From IMG/VR virus record IMGVR_UViG_3300045988_054550, positions 7,976 through 71,975 of that record: a stretch of DNA of 64,000 nucleotides. One strand, 5' to 3'. Made by a program: the position numbers and the translations under genes. Positions 7,293-58,517 of this stretch are shown piece after piece. The DNA comes from a virus. The notes under the pieces were generated by a model, which made no database searches, had not been told where the DNA came from, and saw nothing but the letters and a program-made list of their open reading frames with translations. Position 1 is the first letter of the stretch. Every line of letters starts with the position of its first letter.

Positions 7293-8030
7293 TCAAAACG
7301 GGCATAAATTCAAATCAACATCCAGTCCCGGTCTTGCGATCTGCACCAGAACATCATCTCCTGCAACGTCCTGTATCTCTTTCTGCATCACTTCCGGATT
7401 CCCCCATCCCTCTGACAGGTGACATAGCGTTATAGTCCTGAGCGAAGCGGTCTTGTTCACTCGAATAATCTCTTTTACAGTAGATAAACTGCTGTGCCCC
7501 CGGATGGAGTGTTCAAACTTAAACGAATCCTGTTCTGGCGATTCGTCCAGATGATTGCATTCTATAAGGAAGTGATTTATTCTCATGTTCTTAAATGTGA
7601 ACGGCAAATATGAGAAGTCTGTCGCATATATCAGTCGCCCGCATTCCTCATGCGATATCAGGTACGCGAAGTTTGGTGTATTGTCGTGTGGGACGTAGAA
7701 CGGCGTTACCCGGAACGAACCTATGTCTTTTGGTTTCTTTTCTGGCAATCCGATCATCAGCTCCCCAGAGATTGCGTTTACGCTCTCAACCGTCTCGTCA
7801 TTGGTGTAAATCTGAATACCGGACTGCATAAGATTCTGAAATGATTTCAGGTGATCTCCGTGTCCATGGGTCAGCAGACAGCCCGAAACATCTGATATCC
7901 TATAAGAAATTCCTTTTAAAATCTCTGAATACTTGCATCCACAATCCAAAAGCAAGATTTCGCCGGATTCGGTCTTGAGCGTATAGCAGTTTCCGAGTTG
8001 ACTGCCTGTGTTTATCACTCTCATGAACAT
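7293..8030 (-). CDS. metallo-beta-lactamase fold hydrolase/nuclease
   Basis: LLTHGHGDHL matches the HxHxDH motif. Sits next to the recombination genes. Confidence 0.75.
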   Translation of the reverse strand: MFMRVINTGSQLGNCYTLKTESGEILLLDCGCKYSEILKGISYRISDVSGCLLTHGHGDHLKSFQNLMQSGIQIYTNDETVESVNAISGELMIGLPEKKPKDIGSFRVTPFYVPHDNTPNFAYLISHEECGRLIYATDFSYLPFTFKNMRINHFLIECNHLDESPEQDSFKFEHSIRGHSSLSTVKEIIRVNKTASLRTITLCHLSEGWGNPEVMQKEIQDVAGDDVLVQIARPGLDVDLNLCPF

Positions 8031-51840: not shown

Positions 51841-52483
51841 TTATTCTCCTTTCGCTGGCCATTCAAAGCCAAAATCTGAACGTTTGATTTTGCATTGTGG
51901 GATTCCATCTTTCCAGAATATAATTCCTTCCATATTGCGATTTCTCAAATATTCTCGGATGCCATCGTAAGTTCTAGGGACTGAGATTTCCAGTTTGCCA
52001 TGTGGAATAAGCGTATCAATTCCAAAATCGTACGGATTCCCATTGAAATGTTTTCCAACAGCTTCGTATGTGCCGCACATAGTCGGTTCCACAATATTTT
52101 CAGTACCATCCAGTGTAGTTACATTTACCTTTACCTTATTATCTTCAAGATATCTGTAATAAGCTTTCGCAAACCATTTATCTTCAGGTGCCGGATTTCC
52201 TAAATCAACTTTCACCCAGCATGGAAAATGTCCCGTAACTGGGTCTGGTTTATCCTGACACGAGATTGATCCAAGTGGGACTTTACGCCCCTTTTTGACA
52301 TTCGCATCATATCTTTTAAAAAGGTTTCCATCGGCAATCATGCAACAAGAACCATCCCATTTCACTGTGGCAGTTCCTTTTCATTCAAGAACCCACTCCA
52401 TGCCTTCTGTGACTTCCGGAAGTGTTCTTTTAACTCTATGTCCCTCAAATTCTCGTTTGAATAGTGTTGGTATTTTTTTTCAT
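51841..52483 (-). pseudogene. ATP-dependent ligase-like nucleotidyltransferase with A8 frameshift at start and in-frame TGA (52381-52383)
   Basis: Reading KKIPTLFKREFEGHRVKRTLPEVTEGMEWVLE-TGA-KGTATVKWDGSCC (KxDG motif I), GTYEAVG..GNPY, EGIIFW..CKIKRSDFG. The ATG at 52481-52483 is out of frame by one A of an A8 run. Confidence 0.65.
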
Positions 52484-54047: not shown

Positions 54048-54755
54048 TCAAGCTGTCTTCTCGAACAACTCAAGAATAAACTCTCGTCCAATCTGTGTGA
54101 TTCGCCTGTGATAGATTACTCTTCCAGAATCCAGAACTTCCTGTTTGATTTCTTCGTACCCACAATTGCTATACTGCGAAAACATCACCCATGTACCATT
54201 GACCTGATACTGAATCTTTTTATCTGCCAGAATCCGGTTTAGCTGCATTGCTGATTTCAGTCCCAGTTCCTTAGCAATCTCAGTAATGGTATAAGTTTTG
54301 TTGACGTGCATCAGAATAGCGTTCTTTCTTTCAGCTTCCACTCTGGCGGCACGTTCCTCTTTTAATTTGGTTAGAAGTTCAATTCCAAAGTCGGGATTGT
54401 TGAGAATGTTATCAATTACATTGTCCGTAGCATATATACCATGCTTGCGGATAGTCTTCAGAATCTCTTTAACTTCTTTCTTAAACTGTTTTGCGATTGG
54501 CTTTCTTGACTGCATCAGGACTTCATAAAGTCCATTCTCGGTAAGCATATTCATTTGCCTGTTCTGACCTGCCCTAAGAATTGTTGAGATCAGCTTTTCA
54601 TCATCGTCAATGCCCCTAAGCATTTCCGTTACGTTGCTATGTTCAATCCAATCGGCTACATCATTGGCCACAAACAACGGTTCTTCTGCTGTTCCGTAAA
54701 CGCGAAACTGTTTTCCCAATACTTCCTGCTCATTCAATACTTTCAGTTCGTTCAT
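54048..54755 (-). CDS. BRO-N / KilAC-type phage antirepressor
   Basis: Start at MNELKVLNEQ. FRVYGTAEEPLFVANDVADWI...MLTENGLYEVLMQSRKPIAKQFKK is the Bro-N pattern. Confidence 0.7.
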   Translation of the reverse strand: MNELKVLNEQEVLGKQFRVYGTAEEPLFVANDVADWIEHSNVTEMLRGIDDDEKLISTILRAGQNRQMNMLTENGLYEVLMQSRKPIAKQFKKEVKEILKTIRKHGIYATDNVIDNILNNPDFGIELLTKLKEERAARVEAERKNAILMHVNKTYTITEIAKELGLKSAMQLNRILADKKIQYQVNGTWVMFSQYSNCGYEEIKQEVLDSGRVIYHRRITQIGREFILELFEKTA

Positions 54756-54913
54756 TTCTCTCTTTTCTCCCTGTGCTTCATCTGGCATCCGATCATCTTT
54801 GCTACATTTTCACGTTCTTGTTTTATTCCATGTCCCTGACGGAATAACTCACATTCAAGGATATTTCCGCATTTAGAACATTCGTCTTTAATTTCTTTTC
54901 CTGCTATTTGCAT
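54752..54913 (-). CDS. small Cys-containing protein (53 aa)
   Basis: Hand-translated MQIAGKEIKDECSKCGNILECE... Overlaps both neighbours at the start and stop. Confidence 0.35.
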   Translation of the reverse strand: MQIAGKEIKDECSKCGNILECELFRQGHGIKQERENVAKMIGCQMKHREKREK

Positions 54914-55179
54914 TCCCATCCATCCTGTACCATTCTAGGTTTGTATATTTTTTCAGTATACCCTTCGCCGTTGCATAAGTCGCAAGTGACTTCTTTTTCT
55001 ACGTAATCATCACAACATTCCCAGTATTGCGCACGATTTACTCTTTTGATAATAGTTCCACTTCCGCCGCACTTCGGACATCTGTGAATTTTGTTTCCTT
55101 GCATTAGTTTCACAAGGTCATCAAGAGTCGTTTCTCCACCATATGTATTTCTCAAACATATTGCCTCATAAATTTTCAT
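54904..55179 (-). CDS. DnaJ-type zinc-finger protein
   Basis: Start at MKIYEA after GGGAGGA. CPKCGGSG...CDLCNGEG repeats. Confidence 0.5.
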   Translation of the reverse strand: MKIYEAICLRNTYGGETTLDDLVKLMQGNKIHRCPKCGGSGTIIKRVNRAQYWECCDDYVEKEVTCDLCNGEGYTEKIYKPRMVQDGWECK

Positions 55180-55315
55180 TTTCTGCGTCCTCCCAAAATT
55201 CGCAAACACAATCTGGTTCCGTAAAATTAGCGCAGTGTTCACTGTCGCCGTTGAAACATACCCATGTAAAATCGTCATGTTTCTTACATGTTTTACAATA
55301 CTTTTCTTTTTGCAT
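55166..55315 (-). CDS. small Cys-rich protein (49 aa)
   Basis: MQKEKYCKTCKKHDDFTWVCFNGDSEHC... First gene after the RNA island. Confidence 0.35.
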   Translation of the reverse strand: MQKEKYCKTCKKHDDFTWVCFNGDSEHCANFTEPDCVCEFWEDAENENL

Positions 55316-55339
55316 AATTAACACCTCAATTTAAAAAAG

Positions 55340-55389
55340 TCCAGTGTGCCGACTTGAACGGCATAAATCTCCCAACGAGAAACACTGGA
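55340..55389 (-). ncRNA. tRNA-like minihelix / branched terminator (acceptor-like 8 bp stem + D-like hairpin + T-arm, no anticodon arm) followed by a U6 run
   Basis: Minus strand: TCCAGTGT TT CTC-GTTGG-GAG ATTTAT GCCG-TTCAAGT-CGGC ACACTGGA C TTTTTT. Confidence 0.5.
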
Positions 55390-55438
55390 ACCGTACGAAA
55401 TAAGAGAAAAAGATTCCAATGATTGCAGTTCATTGGAA

Positions 55439-55575
55439 TTGAAAAGGGAAGATTCGAACTTCCATGTACATCCCATGTCCAAAGACACATACTCACCCAT
55501 TAAGATGTACTATCCTCTGCGTCTGCCTTTCTATCGTATCGGGTTCATCACCGTCAATAGTTCCGCCACTTTTCA
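55439..55575 (-). ncRNA. oversized tRNA-like RNA (137 nt): 7 bp acceptor, type-II-like D-arm, canonical T-arm, expanded centre
   Basis: 5' TGAAAAG TG GCG-GAACTATTGA-CGG ... GGAAG-TTCGAAT-CTTCC CTTTTCA A 3'. The candidate anticodon hairpin TATGT-GTCTTTGG-ACATG has an 8 nt loop. Confidence 0.45.
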
Positions 55576-55607
55576 ATCAGAGCATTATCACTCAATGCAT
55601 CAAACGT

Positions 55608-55722
55608 CCATATAGGAGGGGATTTCCACCCTTTTACTCTCATGCCGCCGGCTAAGGTCACCTAAGTTGTGGGTTTAAACCTATGCTACCACAATAGCGT
55701 CTACGTATTCCGCCACTATATG
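55608..55722 (-). ncRNA. oversized tRNA-Leu-like RNA (115 nt): perfect 7 bp acceptor, Leu-type D-arm, aberrant T-loop
   Basis: 5' CATATAG TG GCG-GAATACGTAGA-CGC ... TTGTGG-(16 nt loop with GGTTTAAACC)-CCACAA ... GGG-TGGAAAT-CCC ..CTATATG G 3'. Starts 3 nt after tRNA-Thr. Confidence 0.45.
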
Positions 55723-55725
55723 GAA

Positions 55726-55797
55726 TCGGAAAGGCAGGAATCGAACCTGCGACACATAGCTTACAATGCCATTGCTCTACCACTGAGCTACATTCCA
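55726..55797 (-). tRNA. tRNA-Thr (anticodon UGU)
   Basis: Hand-folded cloverleaf: TGGAATG TA GCTC-AGTGGTA-GAGC A ATGGC-ATTGTAA-GCTAT GTGTC GCAGG-TTCGATT-CCTGC CTTTCCG A. One U-U mismatch and a terminal U-G in the acceptor. Confidence 0.75.
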
Positions 55798-56088
55798 TAC
55801 CGCCTGTAACGGACAGTTCTCTAAAAAGAAACTGGGTTGATTCCCACATCACATGCTTTCGGACCGGATGAAAATATCCAGATAAACATTAACCTTTCCA
55901 TCGTAAAACACATGAACTAGATGGTTCTTTTAGAATTGCCGACTATCACTTCTCACGGACCGTGGTCTCATCTCTCTAAAAAGTTTTTTACGCAAACGCC
56001 TAGTGAGTTGTACGTTTACGCTCATGCGTAAATCCGCCTGAGGCATAGACCGCCTGTATACAAACAGCTTAATTCTAAGCGGATTAAA

Positions 56089-56160
56089 GTGGAACGCCCG
56101 GAATCGAACCGGAGACTAGGTTACTCGTCCCTATCAGCTTTCCACTAGCTGCACATTCCA
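56089..56160 (-). tRNA. tRNA-like gene with non-canonical anticodon arm (loop ACGAGUA, C33; G-A at stem end)
   Basis: TGGAATG TG CAGC-TAGTGGAAA-GCTG A TAGGG-ACGAGTA-ACCTA GTC TCCGG-TTCGATT-CCGGG CGTTCCA C. Acceptor, D and T arms are good. The anticodon loop violates U33 and the variable loop is only 3 nt. Confidence 0.45.
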
Positions 56161-56491
56161 CATAACCCGGAAACTCCGGGTTAGCAATATGTTTATCGTG
56201 TTATGCTTTCCACTAGGCTGTTTTATGCCGTGCCAGCCCCACGGAGTTGTTTTCGGATTTGGATATTAATGTCTTTGTGTATAACAACAAAACCTTTTAT
56301 ATGTCTCTTGAAAACTTCCTGTCCTCAATGCGCGCTTATTGACGACAATTTAACTCGGAGACTGTGTAGAACGGGGAATTATCTTCATCGAACAGGCTGT
56401 GCCGTTACACACCTTTCATAAAAATAATCCACATACATTCATTCAACAGTTTTTTCTGTCCACAAAACGGATAGACAGCATATGGAAGAAA

Positions 56492-56564
56492 TGGAAACTA
56501 CAGGACTTGAACCTGTGACTTGTCGGTTATGAGCCGACCGTTCTGCCAACTGAACTAAGTCTCC
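56492..56564 (-). tRNA. tRNA-Met (CAU; elongator type, or Ile2 if lysidine-modified)
   Basis: GGAGACT TA GTTC-AGTTGGCA-GAAC G GTCGG-CTCATAA-CCGAC AAGTC ACAGG-TTCAAGT-CCTGT AGTTTCC A. Confidence 0.85.
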
Positions 56565-56756
56565 TAAGCAGAGGGTTATTGCAGTTCAAGAGTAACTTCC
56601 TCTGCTGTTGCGATTCTTGCCCTCTCAGTCGCAACAAAGGGTCCGCTGCTCCACAAAATGTGGAAACCATCCGGGACGTTTGAAGCCCCTTTATTCATCC
56701 CCTGATGGGATAGATGGTATTTCAGAGGAACTATATCATGCCAATGATATAGCTAA

Positions 56757-56828
56757 CTAGGCTAGTGGGATTCGAACCCACGAATTCAGCAGTCAAAGTG
56801 CTGAGCCTTACCGCTTGGCGATAGCCCA
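56757..56828 (-). tRNA. tRNA-Gln (UUG)
   Basis: TGGGCTA TC GCCA-AGCGGTA-AGGC T CAGCA-CTTTGAC-TGCTG AATTC GTGGG-TTCGAAT-CCCAC TAGCCTA G. Confidence 0.85.
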
Positions 56829-57129
56829 TTACTTTCCGGGTTGGCGTTCCCGGAAATGTGATATATTCTGGTGGTTTTAGAAAGCATCATAGCTATTAAT
56901 ATTGTTAAGTCCGCGCCAGTTACTTTTCAATGGGCGGGAAAAGTTATTCTCCATTGAGTTTCACCAACGCAGACCTAAGCTACTCTGGATGCCTCGACCT
57001 GTCAGATTCAAAGGCTTTCCCGAACCTGAGAACGACAGGCTTCTGCTTTTCTTGTATTTTCACCCGTTCAATCAGTATAGTGAACAGGGGAATTTGTATT
57101 GTGAATGCTAACCACATTGGGTTCTCCTC

Positions 57130-57642
57130 TTATTCTGCAAAAATCCAATCATCTGCTAACATATCCGCCTGAGATGCAAGCCATCCCATCTGTACGCCGG
57201 ATGTTTCGACAAAAGCAATGGCTTTATTTCCAATCGCATCATGTTCGCAATTTACGATTTTATTATCAGCAGTTTTATACGAAATCCTGGTAGCAAGCTG
57301 AATGTACTGTTTCTTTCCGTTCCATCCTTTTCTTGCAACCTTGAGTCCACGTTTCATATATTTAATTGCATCTCCAAAAGAAAACTCTGATTCGCCACCG
57401 AGCACCGGGCAGTTTGTTTCGTCTGCAATAATCCATTCATCAGACTGCATATTCATAGTGGTATATTCGACCCTCTGAGTTTTCCTGATGTCAAGTAAGT
57501 CGCCCTGAGTATCGCTATCCTGTGGGCGGCACTGAATCATAATTGTTTCTTTTTCTGCATCCCAATACCAATATCCGCCCCATGATGGAAGTTTTACCTT
57601 CGCTCCCTGTTTCATAAGTTTAAATGCTTCTGAAAATTTCAT
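57130..57642 (-). CDS. tandem DUF2829 (Tad2-like) protein
   Basis: Two repeats: MKFSEAFKLMKQGAKVKLPSWGGYWYW...SDEWII and FSFGDAIKYMKRGLKVARKGWNGKKQYIQL...GWLASQADMLADDWIF. Confidence 0.7.
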   Translation of the reverse strand: MKFSEAFKLMKQGAKVKLPSWGGYWYWDAEKETIMIQCRPQDSDTQGDLLDIRKTQRVEYTTMNMQSDEWIIADETNCPVLGGESEFSFGDAIKYMKRGLKVARKGWNGKKQYIQLATRISYKTADNKIVNCEHDAIGNKAIAFVETSGVQMGWLASQADMLADDWIFAE

Positions 57643-57829
57643 TATTTGTGTCCTCCTTATAATCTAAAAATCACAACTGCATTAACTGCGAAACATATTT
57701 CCATTAATATAAATATTGCTGAAGCTATTGGATTGCTTTTCTTTTCGACTTCGTCCTGTGATATAAGGAATGCCAAGACCAATGTGAAAAATGTAATATC
57801 TAACATGGCTGCTACGAATTTTGCTAAAA

Positions 57830-58210
57830 TCATTCTCTTTGTTCCTCTCCGATCATGAAATCAAGAATCTTACCGGCAGTTTCTTCTTCTGGCTCGAATG
57901 GTAAACCGCAGGTACAATACTTCTCAATTGCTGTTTTAAGGCTTGCTTTGAAGCCATTGTAAACTTCTCCGTGTGTCAGAAGTTCGTGCCTTAAAATGGC
58001 TACTGCGTCGGTTAGTTTCTGTTTTGAAAGGTCAATCTTCACATCTCCATTCAGATCTTCATACGCCGTCGCGTTCCCCAAAAGAACTTTGACTTTATTT
58101 GCTTTAAATATCACGTATCCTTGAATTTTTCCAGGGTCTGGTTTTTCTCTTGTGAAAATCGCTGTTTCATCCATTACATATGCGTAATATACTGGGTCAA
58201 TACTGTTCAT
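57830..58210 (-). CDS. hypothetical protein
   Basis: 126 aa ORF. Confidence 0.5.
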   Translation of the reverse strand: MNSIDPVYYAYVMDETAIFTREKPDPGKIQGYVIFKANKVKVLLGNATAYEDLNGDVKIDLSKQKLTDAVAILRHELLTHGEVYNGFKASLKTAIEKYCTCGLPFEPEEETAGKILDFMIGEEQRE

Positions 58211-58517
58211 TCTTCAAGTCCTCCATTTCTTTCACGCTAATCCCGACTATCCCGGCGCTATCCTTGCTGTCTGTGGCTTTAAAGTGTGCTTTAGGGTGTT
58301 GCGGGTACATGAACTCAAACATAAGGTAATTTGCCGCATCCACAAGGTACTCTGTATTCCCAGTGGAATTATATTTTTCAATGCACCGTTCCATTGTAGG
58401 AAGCGCCTGTACGTTTCCGGTTTTAAAATTCTTCCTGGCAGGACCGTATTTATGATAGCTTACCTCGACTCGATTCTTACGAAGTTCATCAAAGCGTTCA
58501 CTGTATTCTTCTGACAT
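58197..58517 (-). CDS. possible MazG-like / dNTP pyrophosphohydrolase-type all-alpha protein
   Basis: 106 aa. HKYGPARKNF...GNTEYLVDAANYLMFEF resembles phage dATP/dGTP diphosphohydrolase N-domains. Recognition is weak. Confidence 0.3.
   Translation of the reverse strand: MSEEYSERFDELRKNRVEVSYHKYGPARKNFKTGNVQALPTMERCIEKYNSTGNTEYLVDAANYLMFEFMYPQHPKAHFKATDSKDSAGIVGISVKEMEDLKNEQY

Follow-up and report, generated by a model that had tools for sequence, protein, structure and literature searches.

A conserved tRNA-Leu-like RNA lacking an anticodon arm at the end of a viral tRNA operon

Since the discovery of RNA C and RNA D of phage T4 it has been known that phage tRNA clusters encode small stable tRNA-like RNAs, but these have neither an assigned function nor a defined family. 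The roles of these two RNAs are still unexplained (PMC3014915, PMC9697503). In the T4 genome they form the last two units of the tRNA cluster, in the order tRNA-Arg, rnaD (119 nucleotides, nt) and rnaC (139 nt). A parallel arrangement is found in a 64,000-nt stretch of viral DNA, here called the window (positions 7,976 to 71,975 of IMG/VR record IMGVR_UViG_3300045988_054550), where a minus-strand tRNA array ends with tRNA-Thr, a unit of 117 nt (U5), a unit of 137 nt (U6) and a terminator. The unit under study is U6, which runs from 55575 to 55439 on the minus strand. Judged from its conservation and covariation, U6 is a conserved, structured, non-decoding RNA gene with a tRNA-Leu core at the end of a tRNA operon, and it probably encodes a stable small RNA that derives from tRNA-Leu and is processed as a tRNA.

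Several structural features are common to T4 RNA C and U6. The two ends of RNA C form a terminal helix that adjoins a canonical T-arm (CCGGG-UUCGAAU-CCCGG), as they do in U6, and the fold plans are similar, with a hairpin immediately 5' of the T-arm and, in RNA C, a long 5' hairpin that replaces the D-arm. Both RNAs lack an anticodon arm and an Rfam family. The positional and structural traits of an RNA C-like unit are found in U6, namely a position at the 3' end of a phage tRNA cluster, a length of about 120-140 nt, a terminal helix with a canonical T-arm and the lack of an anticodon arm. In contrast to U6, RNA C has no Leu-type D-arm (GGCGGAA...GGYAGACGC), and its terminal helix contains two U.U mismatches. 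A distant blastn search against 50,697 phage records gave no sequence similarity between U6 and rnaC over the unit. Because of this lack of similarity and of a Leu-type D-arm in rnaC, U6 is not called an rnaC homologue; RNA C, whether homologous or convergent, is taken as its closest analogue, in that U6 may work in a similar way.

Other described RNAs resemble parts of U6. Bacterial class II tRNA-Leu has the same acceptor length of 7 base pairs (bp), U8, a GCG/CGC D-stem with GAA...GG(Y)AGA, the A15-U48 pair, the UUCGAAU T-loop and A73. However, the D-loop of these tRNAs has about 11 nt, compared to 42 nt in U6, and U6 has neither an anticodon arm nor a Leu anticodon. A second likeness is to the engineered tRNA scaffold reportedly devised by Ponchon and Dardel in 2007, in which foreign RNA is grafted into a tRNA body for expression in bacteria; the Spinach-tRNA fusion is said to be a comparable construct. 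In these scaffolds, as in U6, processing and stability would come from a tRNA body, one arm of which is replaced or extended by an unrelated structured RNA. Unlike U6 and its relatives, which are natural, have two insertion sites and carry modules recombined between phages, the engineered scaffolds are man-made grafts in the anticodon stem. Finally, the tRNA-like domain of transfer-messenger RNA (tmRNA) and the bacterial Y RNA YrlA are tRNA mimics that, like U6, keep acceptor and T-arm features without an anticodon, although U6 gives no tmRNA call with ARAGORN, contains no tag open reading frame (ORF) and is covered by no Rfam family at E <= 10. The two termini of YrlA are located in its Ro-binding stem, not in the acceptor.

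Read on the minus strand, the U6 RNA has the layout UGAAAAG-UG-GCG-GAA-[CUAUUGACGGUGAUGAACCCGAUACGAUAGAAA]-GGCAGA-CGC-AGAGGAUA-[GUACAUC...GAUGUAC]-AU-GGAAG-UUCGAAU-CUUCC-CUUUUCA-A, and consists of the following parts.

55569 to 55575, minus strand: 5' strand of the acceptor stem, UGAAAAG (RNA positions 1-7), with 7 pairs, 99.3% paired in the alignment
55561 to 55568, minus strand: U8, G9, GCG (D-stem, 5' strand) and GAA (A14, A15), making up the Leu-type motif UGGCGGAA that is also present in U5
55528 to 55560, minus strand: 33-nt hairpin within the D-loop, at about positions 16/17, from folding, covariation and RNAalifold
55519 to 55527, minus strand: GGCAGA (equivalent of G18 G19) and the 3' strand of the D-stem (CGC), from homology with the tRNA-Leu motif GGUAGACGC
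55511 to 55518, minus strand: 8-nt linker AGAGGAUA standing where an anticodon arm would be, unpaired in the single-sequence fold and in RNAalifold
55466 to 55510, minus strand: 45-nt long hairpin, from folding, covariation and RNAalifold
55464 to 55465, minus strand: AU spacer, the U at 55464 being tRNA position 48, partner of A15 and a U in 136 of 136 family members
55447 to 55463, minus strand: canonical T-arm GGAAG-UUCGAAU-CUUCC, from sequence and also found as a hairpin, with four of five pairs covarying
55439 to 55446, minus strand: the acceptor stem's 3' strand (CUUUUCA) and discriminator A73 (55439), with no CCA encoded

The acceptor helix UGAAAAG/CUUUUCA has 7 bp, to which U(-1):A73 may be added as an eighth, and the base that precedes it (-1, at 55576) is U, the base favoured at this position by bacterial RNase P. 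This acceptor and the 5-bp T-stem closed by a UUCRANY T-loop are features of a canonical tRNA. The initial annotation of the window had noted the acceptor TGAAAAG/CTTTTCA, the canonical T-arm and a D-arm start shared with a neighbouring Leu-like unit, and all three are present on the minus strand: the acceptor between 55575 and 55439, the T-arm at 55463-55447, and the common motif GUGGCGGAA in both U6 and U5 (U5 copy at 55717-55708). Its description of a tRNA-like RNA with an oversized centre also stands, but the extra sequence of about 50 nt had been placed in the anticodon/variable region, whereas 33 nt sit in the D-loop and the anticodon arm is replaced rather than enlarged. This insert splits the D-arm as GGCGGAA-[33 nt]-GGCAGACGC, just 5' of the G18 G19 equivalent, in contrast to the uninterrupted D-arm of U5 (GGCGGAAUACGUAGACGC). 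The inserted hairpin has two tiers, an outer stem CUAUUG/CGAUAG (6 bp) and an inner stem CGG/CCG (3 bp), with the 8-nt loop UGAUGAAC and a 3' tail AAA. The D-stem itself is assigned by homology; as it is invariant, covariation is silent on it, and RNAalifold pairs it differently.

In place of the anticodon and variable arms, U6 has the 8-nt linker and the single 45-nt hairpin, which is built of a basal stem GUACAUC/GAUGUAC, a 13-nt bulge on its 5' side and an apical GUGUC-UUUG-GACAU. Folding, RNAalifold and an arm test found no anticodon arm of 5-bp stem and 7-nt loop (with U33 and R37) in U6, and none that could be formed. An anticodon-like hairpin with an 8-nt loop, proposed initially, turned out to be the tip of the long hairpin, which at minimum energy folds into a 5-bp stem and a 4-nt loop. 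Similarly, an alternative 94-nt fold beginning at AGAAAGG is not favoured, and the conserved module starts at 55575. The replacement of both arms makes codon reading impossible. The two hairpin loops have 4 nt and 8 nt, and the latter varies at three positions among near-identical phages. The sole reading frame through the unit is a 60-amino-acid ORF (55500-55318); a single extra nucleotide disrupts it in the L081 group of relatives, and it was rejected as a coding sequence. With no anticodon loop and a frameshifted ORF, the U6 RNA cannot decode and is non-coding. The parts that U6 retains from class II tRNA-Leu are those expected to form the coaxial acceptor/T helix and the elbow between the D- and T-arms.

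Related viral contigs were recovered with a flanking gene for a protein resembling Tad2 (Thoeris anti-defence 2) and with an exact 24-mer. U6 is present in 74 fetched loci at 94-100% identity, some of these loci being the same contig from two collections, and all U6-carrying records with a descriptive title are human-gut metagenomes. Different DNA flanks U6 on one side or the other in five loci (L069, L107, L012, L086 and L092), in which similarity ends precisely at the acceptor ends, the sharp edges to be expected of a tRNA-like gene module. The conservation of U6 equals or exceeds that of the recognised tRNAs, in a sample partly selected for carrying U6. The repeated occurrence of U6 is more than chance.

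An alignment of 20 distinct U6 variants was used for covariation. Across these variants the proposed helices have 99.4% standard pairs, compared to 33-56% for slid controls, and in six pairs both bases have changed; none of 500 shuffles gave as many, although related sequences may outscore shuffles without any structure. In the T-stem, four of five pairs are altered on both sides, and L012 carries a full swap from GGAAG/CUUCC to GAUGG/CCAUC. In the D-loop insert, the inner-stem pair 24-35 changes from G-C through G-U to A-U, and the pairs 20-41 and 21-40 are altered on one side. In the long hairpin, the pair 68-108 (alignment columns 68 and 109) changes from A-U to G-C in L117, and two other pairs have one-sided changes. 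RNAalifold independently recovered all proposed helices with the exception of the D-stem.

Beyond the close relatives of U6, units of the same architecture were collected in three scans with the pattern GTGGCGGAA-N15-45-GCAGACGC-N40-70-GTTCRAATC and a looser form of it. In viral contigs the strict pattern matched 51 stretches and the looser form 113, and at least 119 stretches with an interrupted Leu motif were found in metagenome contigs. In 185,579 bacterial and archaeal genomes there was a single match, a GC-rich repeat without a tRNA-like fold that is attributable to chance. Among the matches listed, the pooled viral and metagenome sets comprise 241 instances and 167 distinct units; 136 distinct units have at least six of seven acceptor pairs and at least four of five T-stem pairs, features outside the pattern, and these 136 include three ordinary tRNA-Leu false positives. 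The family can be defined by UGGCGGAA-[10-40 nt hairpin]-GGYAGACGC, a non-canonical centre of 28-70 nt, U48, a canonical T-arm and a pairing acceptor, all of which are found in U6. Members range from 93 to 144 nt (median 126) and lie inside phage tRNA arrays, some of them on contigs of 100-257 kb.

Several features that the search pattern does not contain recur in the family. Position 48 is U in 136 of 136 members and position -1 is U in 98 of 136, while the discriminator is A in 104 of 136 and CCA is encoded in 1 of 136. The D-loop inserts are more stable than their own shuffles in 98% of cases (mean -7.8 versus -3.2 kcal/mol). There are 36 types of D-loop insert and 67 types of central domain in many combinations, one insert type occurring with 19 different centres and one centre with four different inserts. 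One common centre contains a 7-bp helix with three compensatory pairs inside a probable pseudoknot, and one insert type keeps the constant loop ACUGAUAA while its inner stem varies between CAAC/GUUG, CUGC/GCAG and CUAC/GUAG. An anticodon-like arm is found in just 5 of 136 members. Three of these (L251, L264 and L289), considered as tRNA-Leu with a D-loop insert and a Leu anticodon, are ordinary tRNA-Leu genes following partial 5' duplications. The remaining two are L158, with a GUA loop, and L180, in which the arm is doubtful because the close homologue L156 has a different, 6-nt loop.

The insert and the centre of U6 cluster only with each other, and common descent with the modules of other members is unsupported. 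A homology between the U6 insert and the widespread ACUGAUAAA insert type, suspected from the loop UGAUGAA, found no support in a MAFFT alignment. U6 and the other members share the scaffold, the site of insertion and the lost anticodon arm. These comparisons suggest that U6 represents a single lineage of a family restricted to phages, whose Leu-type scaffold is constant and carries interchangeable D-loop inserts and central domains. Distant blastn against the 50,697 phage records found no GenBank phage with U6, and no GenBank phage was found with any of three representative family units. No description of D-loop hairpin tRNA-like RNAs in phages was found in the full-text literature, where the catalogue PMC10690425 was covered without its supplement, nor in a 2020 review of non-canonical tRNAs (PMC7609411).

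Oversized tRNA-like units of 111-121 nt on other scaffolds were observed next to or near Leu-type ones. These are L156 67-181, with a class I D-arm and 58 nt replacing the anticodon arm; L175 1554-1664, with a class I-type D-arm and a 29-nt D-loop insert; and L137 636-756, with an uninterrupted Leu D-arm and an oversized centre. All three score barely above the Rfam tRNA threshold.

Besides the caveat on shuffles, several observations weigh against reading U6 as a working RNA gene. The energy of its single-sequence fold is ordinary (z = -0.95), and the U6 clade shows little variation (mean column identity 97%), leaving covariation silent on most pairs. U6 is missing from many close relatives of the phage and is therefore dispensable. 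L047 carries a 26-nt tandem duplication within the D-loop insert and an acceptor mismatch, and in L095 a deletion has fused the 5' part of U5 to U6 at GUGGCGGAA and broken the acceptor pairing; these two cases indicate that the repeats recombine and that some copies decay. At the level of the family, members were gathered by a motif pattern, such that the common D- and T-arm sequence is partly built in, and there is no conserved neighbour gene, the largest protein cluster covering 11 of 108 loci.

The fold energy, the patchy presence among relatives and the recombination at UGGCGGAA evident in the L095 and L047 rearrangements are also what would be seen if U6 were a decaying tRNA-Leu pseudogene or a functionless recombination scar, its insert being debris of illegitimate recombination between tRNA-Leu-like repeats. 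The partial 5' copies in front of ordinary tRNA-Leu in L251, L264 and L289 point the same way. Such decay is difficult to reconcile with near-identity across the 74 fetched loci, at or above the level of recognised tRNAs in the U6-selected sample, with the sharp boundaries, with six compensatory pairs that include a fully swapped T-stem, and with the recurrence of the architecture, its U48 invariant, around unrelated hairpin-forming inserts in more than 100 other phage contigs. A pseudogene or scar is thus an unlikely explanation of U6.

Very unlikely is that U6 is a decoding tRNA, in which the extra segments would be introns cut by an unknown phage or host endonuclease and an RNA ligase would rejoin the halves. 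A candidate ligase does lie about 3 kb away, as an ORF resembling RLIG1-type RNA ligases (51841-52365), and ARAGORN at a lowered threshold returns Ile(GAU) with a 57-nt intron. In addition, two members of the family, perhaps fewer (L158 and, weakly, L180), combine near-normal anticodon arms with D-loop inserts. However, no pair of junctions in U6 gives a 5-bp stem and a 7-nt loop with U33 and R37, RNA ligase is not among the recurrent clusters of neighbouring genes, the supposed anticodon differs between the close homologues L156 and L180, and the U6 inserts are themselves conserved and covarying. The ARAGORN call appears only at -ps90, has a 3-bp D-arm with a mismatch and disregards the covarying helices, and was set aside as implausible. 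Group I and bulge-helix-bulge introns were rejected as well: there is no Intron_gpI match, the inserts of 33 nt and about 20 nt are too short for group I, no bulge-helix-bulge was seen on inspection, and no junction restores an anticodon arm. The initial exclusion of a group I intron and of a type II variable arm was upheld, and no intron model matched. Excision to a mature tRNA of 75-90 nt is unlikely because no combination of exons rebuilds an anticodon arm of 5 bp and 7 nt.

Highly improbable, too, is an unspliced, expanded tRNA that still takes part in translation as a suppressor, frameshift decoder or tmRNA-like rescuer, acting through a hairpin loop or a partner protein. The acceptor/T half needed for EF-Tu binding is intact, the possible 8-bp acceptor is reminiscent of tRNA-Sec, and relatives vary the anticodon of the neighbouring tRNA between UGU, UGA and UCA, a sign of code tinkering in the clade. 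Against such a role, the hairpin loops have 4 and 8 nt, the larger differing at three positions between near-identical phages, and the one ORF is frameshifted in the L081 group. Searches with RNA models also argue against it: Rfam, at the gathering threshold and at E <= 10 over 54500-58500, places no family on U6, tmRNA included, and none of its clan members at E <= 10. Within the same Rfam search a weak tRNA-Sec match is to another unit, U3. U6 falls below the threshold of the tRNA model RF00005 (29 bits), with no tRNA match even at E <= 10, and receives no call from ARAGORN at default settings. A tmRNA was accordingly rejected, with no match in ARAGORN or Rfam and the sole ORF frameshifted in relatives, as was a tRNA-Sec or allo-tRNA, for which the possible eighth pair U(-1):A73 is offset by the lack of an anticodon arm and of a tRNA-Sec match over U6.

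Other identities were set aside as well. For an antisense RNA there were only chance 9-15-mers within the window. For a K-turn, C/D-box RNA, hammerhead or T-loop, considered for the UGAUGAA loop, inspection by eye found no D box and no stem II/GAAA arrangement, and there was no Rfam ribozyme match. That U6 would act in cis, as DNA or RNA, instead of as a free RNA (be it as RNase P punctuation, within the terminator or as a site of attachment for integration) is hardly credible, for although U6 abuts the operon terminator and tRNA-like shapes can act as processing signals, nothing downstream in the transcript requires release, U6 moves as a module among arrays with differing flanks and is followed by another tRNA in L069, family members stand mid-array in other phages, and a cleavage signal needs no conserved, covarying internal hairpins.

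The preferred reading of U6 as a non-decoding RNA processed like a tRNA leads to a simple scheme. Host tRNA-processing enzymes would excise U6 from the operon transcript, with RNase P acting at the 5' end and RNase Z or exonucleases together with the CCA-adding enzyme at the 3' end. With its acceptor/T helix and elbow intact, a U at -1 and no encoded CCA, U6 would be a substrate for RNase P, 3' trimming and CCA addition, and processing would set it free as a stable species of about 140 nt. In this RNA the tRNA body would serve as a scaffold for processing and stability, and the two inserted modules would be the working parts, presumably binding a protein or RNA partner.

A more speculative step is that the RNA may be leucylated without entering decoding. 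The identity set of bacterial leucyl-tRNA synthetase (LeuRS) consists of A73 and the core U8-A14, A15-U48, G18-U55 and G19-C56, and removing the entire anticodon stem-loop costs just 2.5-fold in affinity, while changes at positions 16 and 17 are without effect (PMC2377443). The sequence features of a LeuRS substrate are present in U6, namely A73, U8-A14, A15-U48, G18 G19 with U55 C56, and a regular acceptor helix. The family conserves exactly this identity set and varies exactly the parts that are dispensable for leucylation. This pattern fits selection to remain a LeuRS substrate, and would be equally expected from selection for the L-shape alone. A point to the contrary is that the hairpin ahead of G18 G19 alters the D-loop geometry that the Escherichia coli LeuRS reportedly senses, such that charging may fail. 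Actual leucylation of the U6 RNA is considered less likely than not.

With respect to function, host takeover or anti-defence is the favoured conjecture, given that the array adjoins the gene for the Tad2-like protein and other early genes. It is possible, and put forward tentatively, that gut phages and phages of many other metagenomes (at least one of them titled marine) encode apparently undescribed leucine-tRNA bodies with all determinants for processing and LeuRS, no anticodon arm, and swappable modules at D-loop positions 16/17 and in the anticodon/variable domain. These would constitute a natural, recombining tRNA-scaffold display, possibly leucine-charged, for host takeover or anti-defence, and would be the general class that functionally includes T4 RNA C.

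What is gained from U6 is an architecture that can be searched for, made up of a scaffold of Leu type, a hairpin in the D-loop and a substitute for the anticodon domain. More than 100 natural variants allow the constant parts (determinants for RNase P, CCA addition and LeuRS) to be separated from those carrying specificity, and processing, charging and partner binding are directly testable predictions. Since genes of the family are missed by standard tRNA finders and Rfam, 'intergenic' DNA in phage tRNA arrays is under-annotated. If such RNAs are charged but unable to decode, they would be a novel way for a virus to interfere with aminoacylation or to make use of it. The family also offers a handle on the old question of T4 RNA C, and, if the display-system reading is true, this 50-year-old orphan RNA would be placed functionally.

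U6 lies in a 1.8-kb non-coding stretch in which ARAGORN and Rfam recognise three ordinary tRNAs. The neighbouring features, in the order of transcription, are the following.

57130 to 57642, minus strand: gene for the Tad2-like protein, directly upstream of the tRNA array
56828 to 56757, minus strand: tRNA-Gln, from ARAGORN and Rfam
56564 to 56492, minus strand: tRNA-Met, from ARAGORN and Rfam
55797 to 55726, minus strand: tRNA-Thr, from ARAGORN and Rfam
55607 to 55723, minus strand: U5, the sibling directly upstream of U6 and another aberrant tRNA-like RNA of Leu type, its start 2 nt beyond tRNA-Thr
55403 to 55439, minus strand: intrinsic terminator directly after U6, with a 10-bp hairpin (55439-55413) followed by the U-run CUUUUUCUCU

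The position of the terminator immediately 3' of U6 makes U6 the last gene of the minus-strand tRNA operon. Of at least 598 related viral stretches, 80 loci were kept, and in these the Tad2-like protein is 79-100% identical.

The sibling U5 has an acceptor of 8 bp, CCAUAUAG/CUAUAUGG, with a compensatory change from A-U to G-C in relatives. Its uninterrupted D-arm has C at the position of G18, and its T-loop is the non-canonical UGGAAAU (UGUAAAU in 109-nt variants); at the elbow, these two loop changes may offset one another. A 16-nt loop stands at the place of the anticodon loop.

Another tRNA-like unit, U3 (56089-56161, minus strand), has 73 nt, an 8-bp acceptor and a 5-bp D-stem. Its anticodon arm can be drawn as 4 bp and a 9-nt loop, or as 5 bp including a G.A mismatch. 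ARAGORN and Rfam at default settings do not find U3; when its threshold is lowered ARAGORN reports 'Leu(GAG)', and the score against the tRNA-Sec model is 20.6 bits. At a comparable position in the array, many relatives have a second tRNA-Met or a tRNA-Tyr, the positions being compared without alignment. The spacers between the tRNAs at 56829-57129, 56565-56756 and 56162-56491 (minus strand) are strongly structured, with fold z-scores of -4.55, -3.78 and -3.17, respectively. These are 80-95% conserved in relatives, have about 68% identity to an unrelated faecal phage fragment (MT838485.1) and have no Rfam match; they may hold further unrecognised structured RNAs.

Downstream of the array, the 174-amino-acid ORF at 51841-52365 (minus strand) matches the Pfam family RLIG1 (RNA ligase 1) with 30.3 bits over profile positions 132-276 of 324. 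A KWDG at its extreme N-terminus resembles motif I of nucleotidyl-transferases, and its GTG start overlaps the stop of an upstream ORF of 72 amino acids (GTGA). This ORF may encode an RNA-repair ligase, or it may be a split or mis-started gene.

Finally, the last class I position of the array in some relatives is occupied by a tRNA that resembles the tRNA-Thr of the window in its D- and T-arms, with the anticodon UGA (L063) or UCA (L080 and L067) in place of UGU. The UCA form is a candidate opal suppressor, and these differences suggest anticodon switching in the phage clade.

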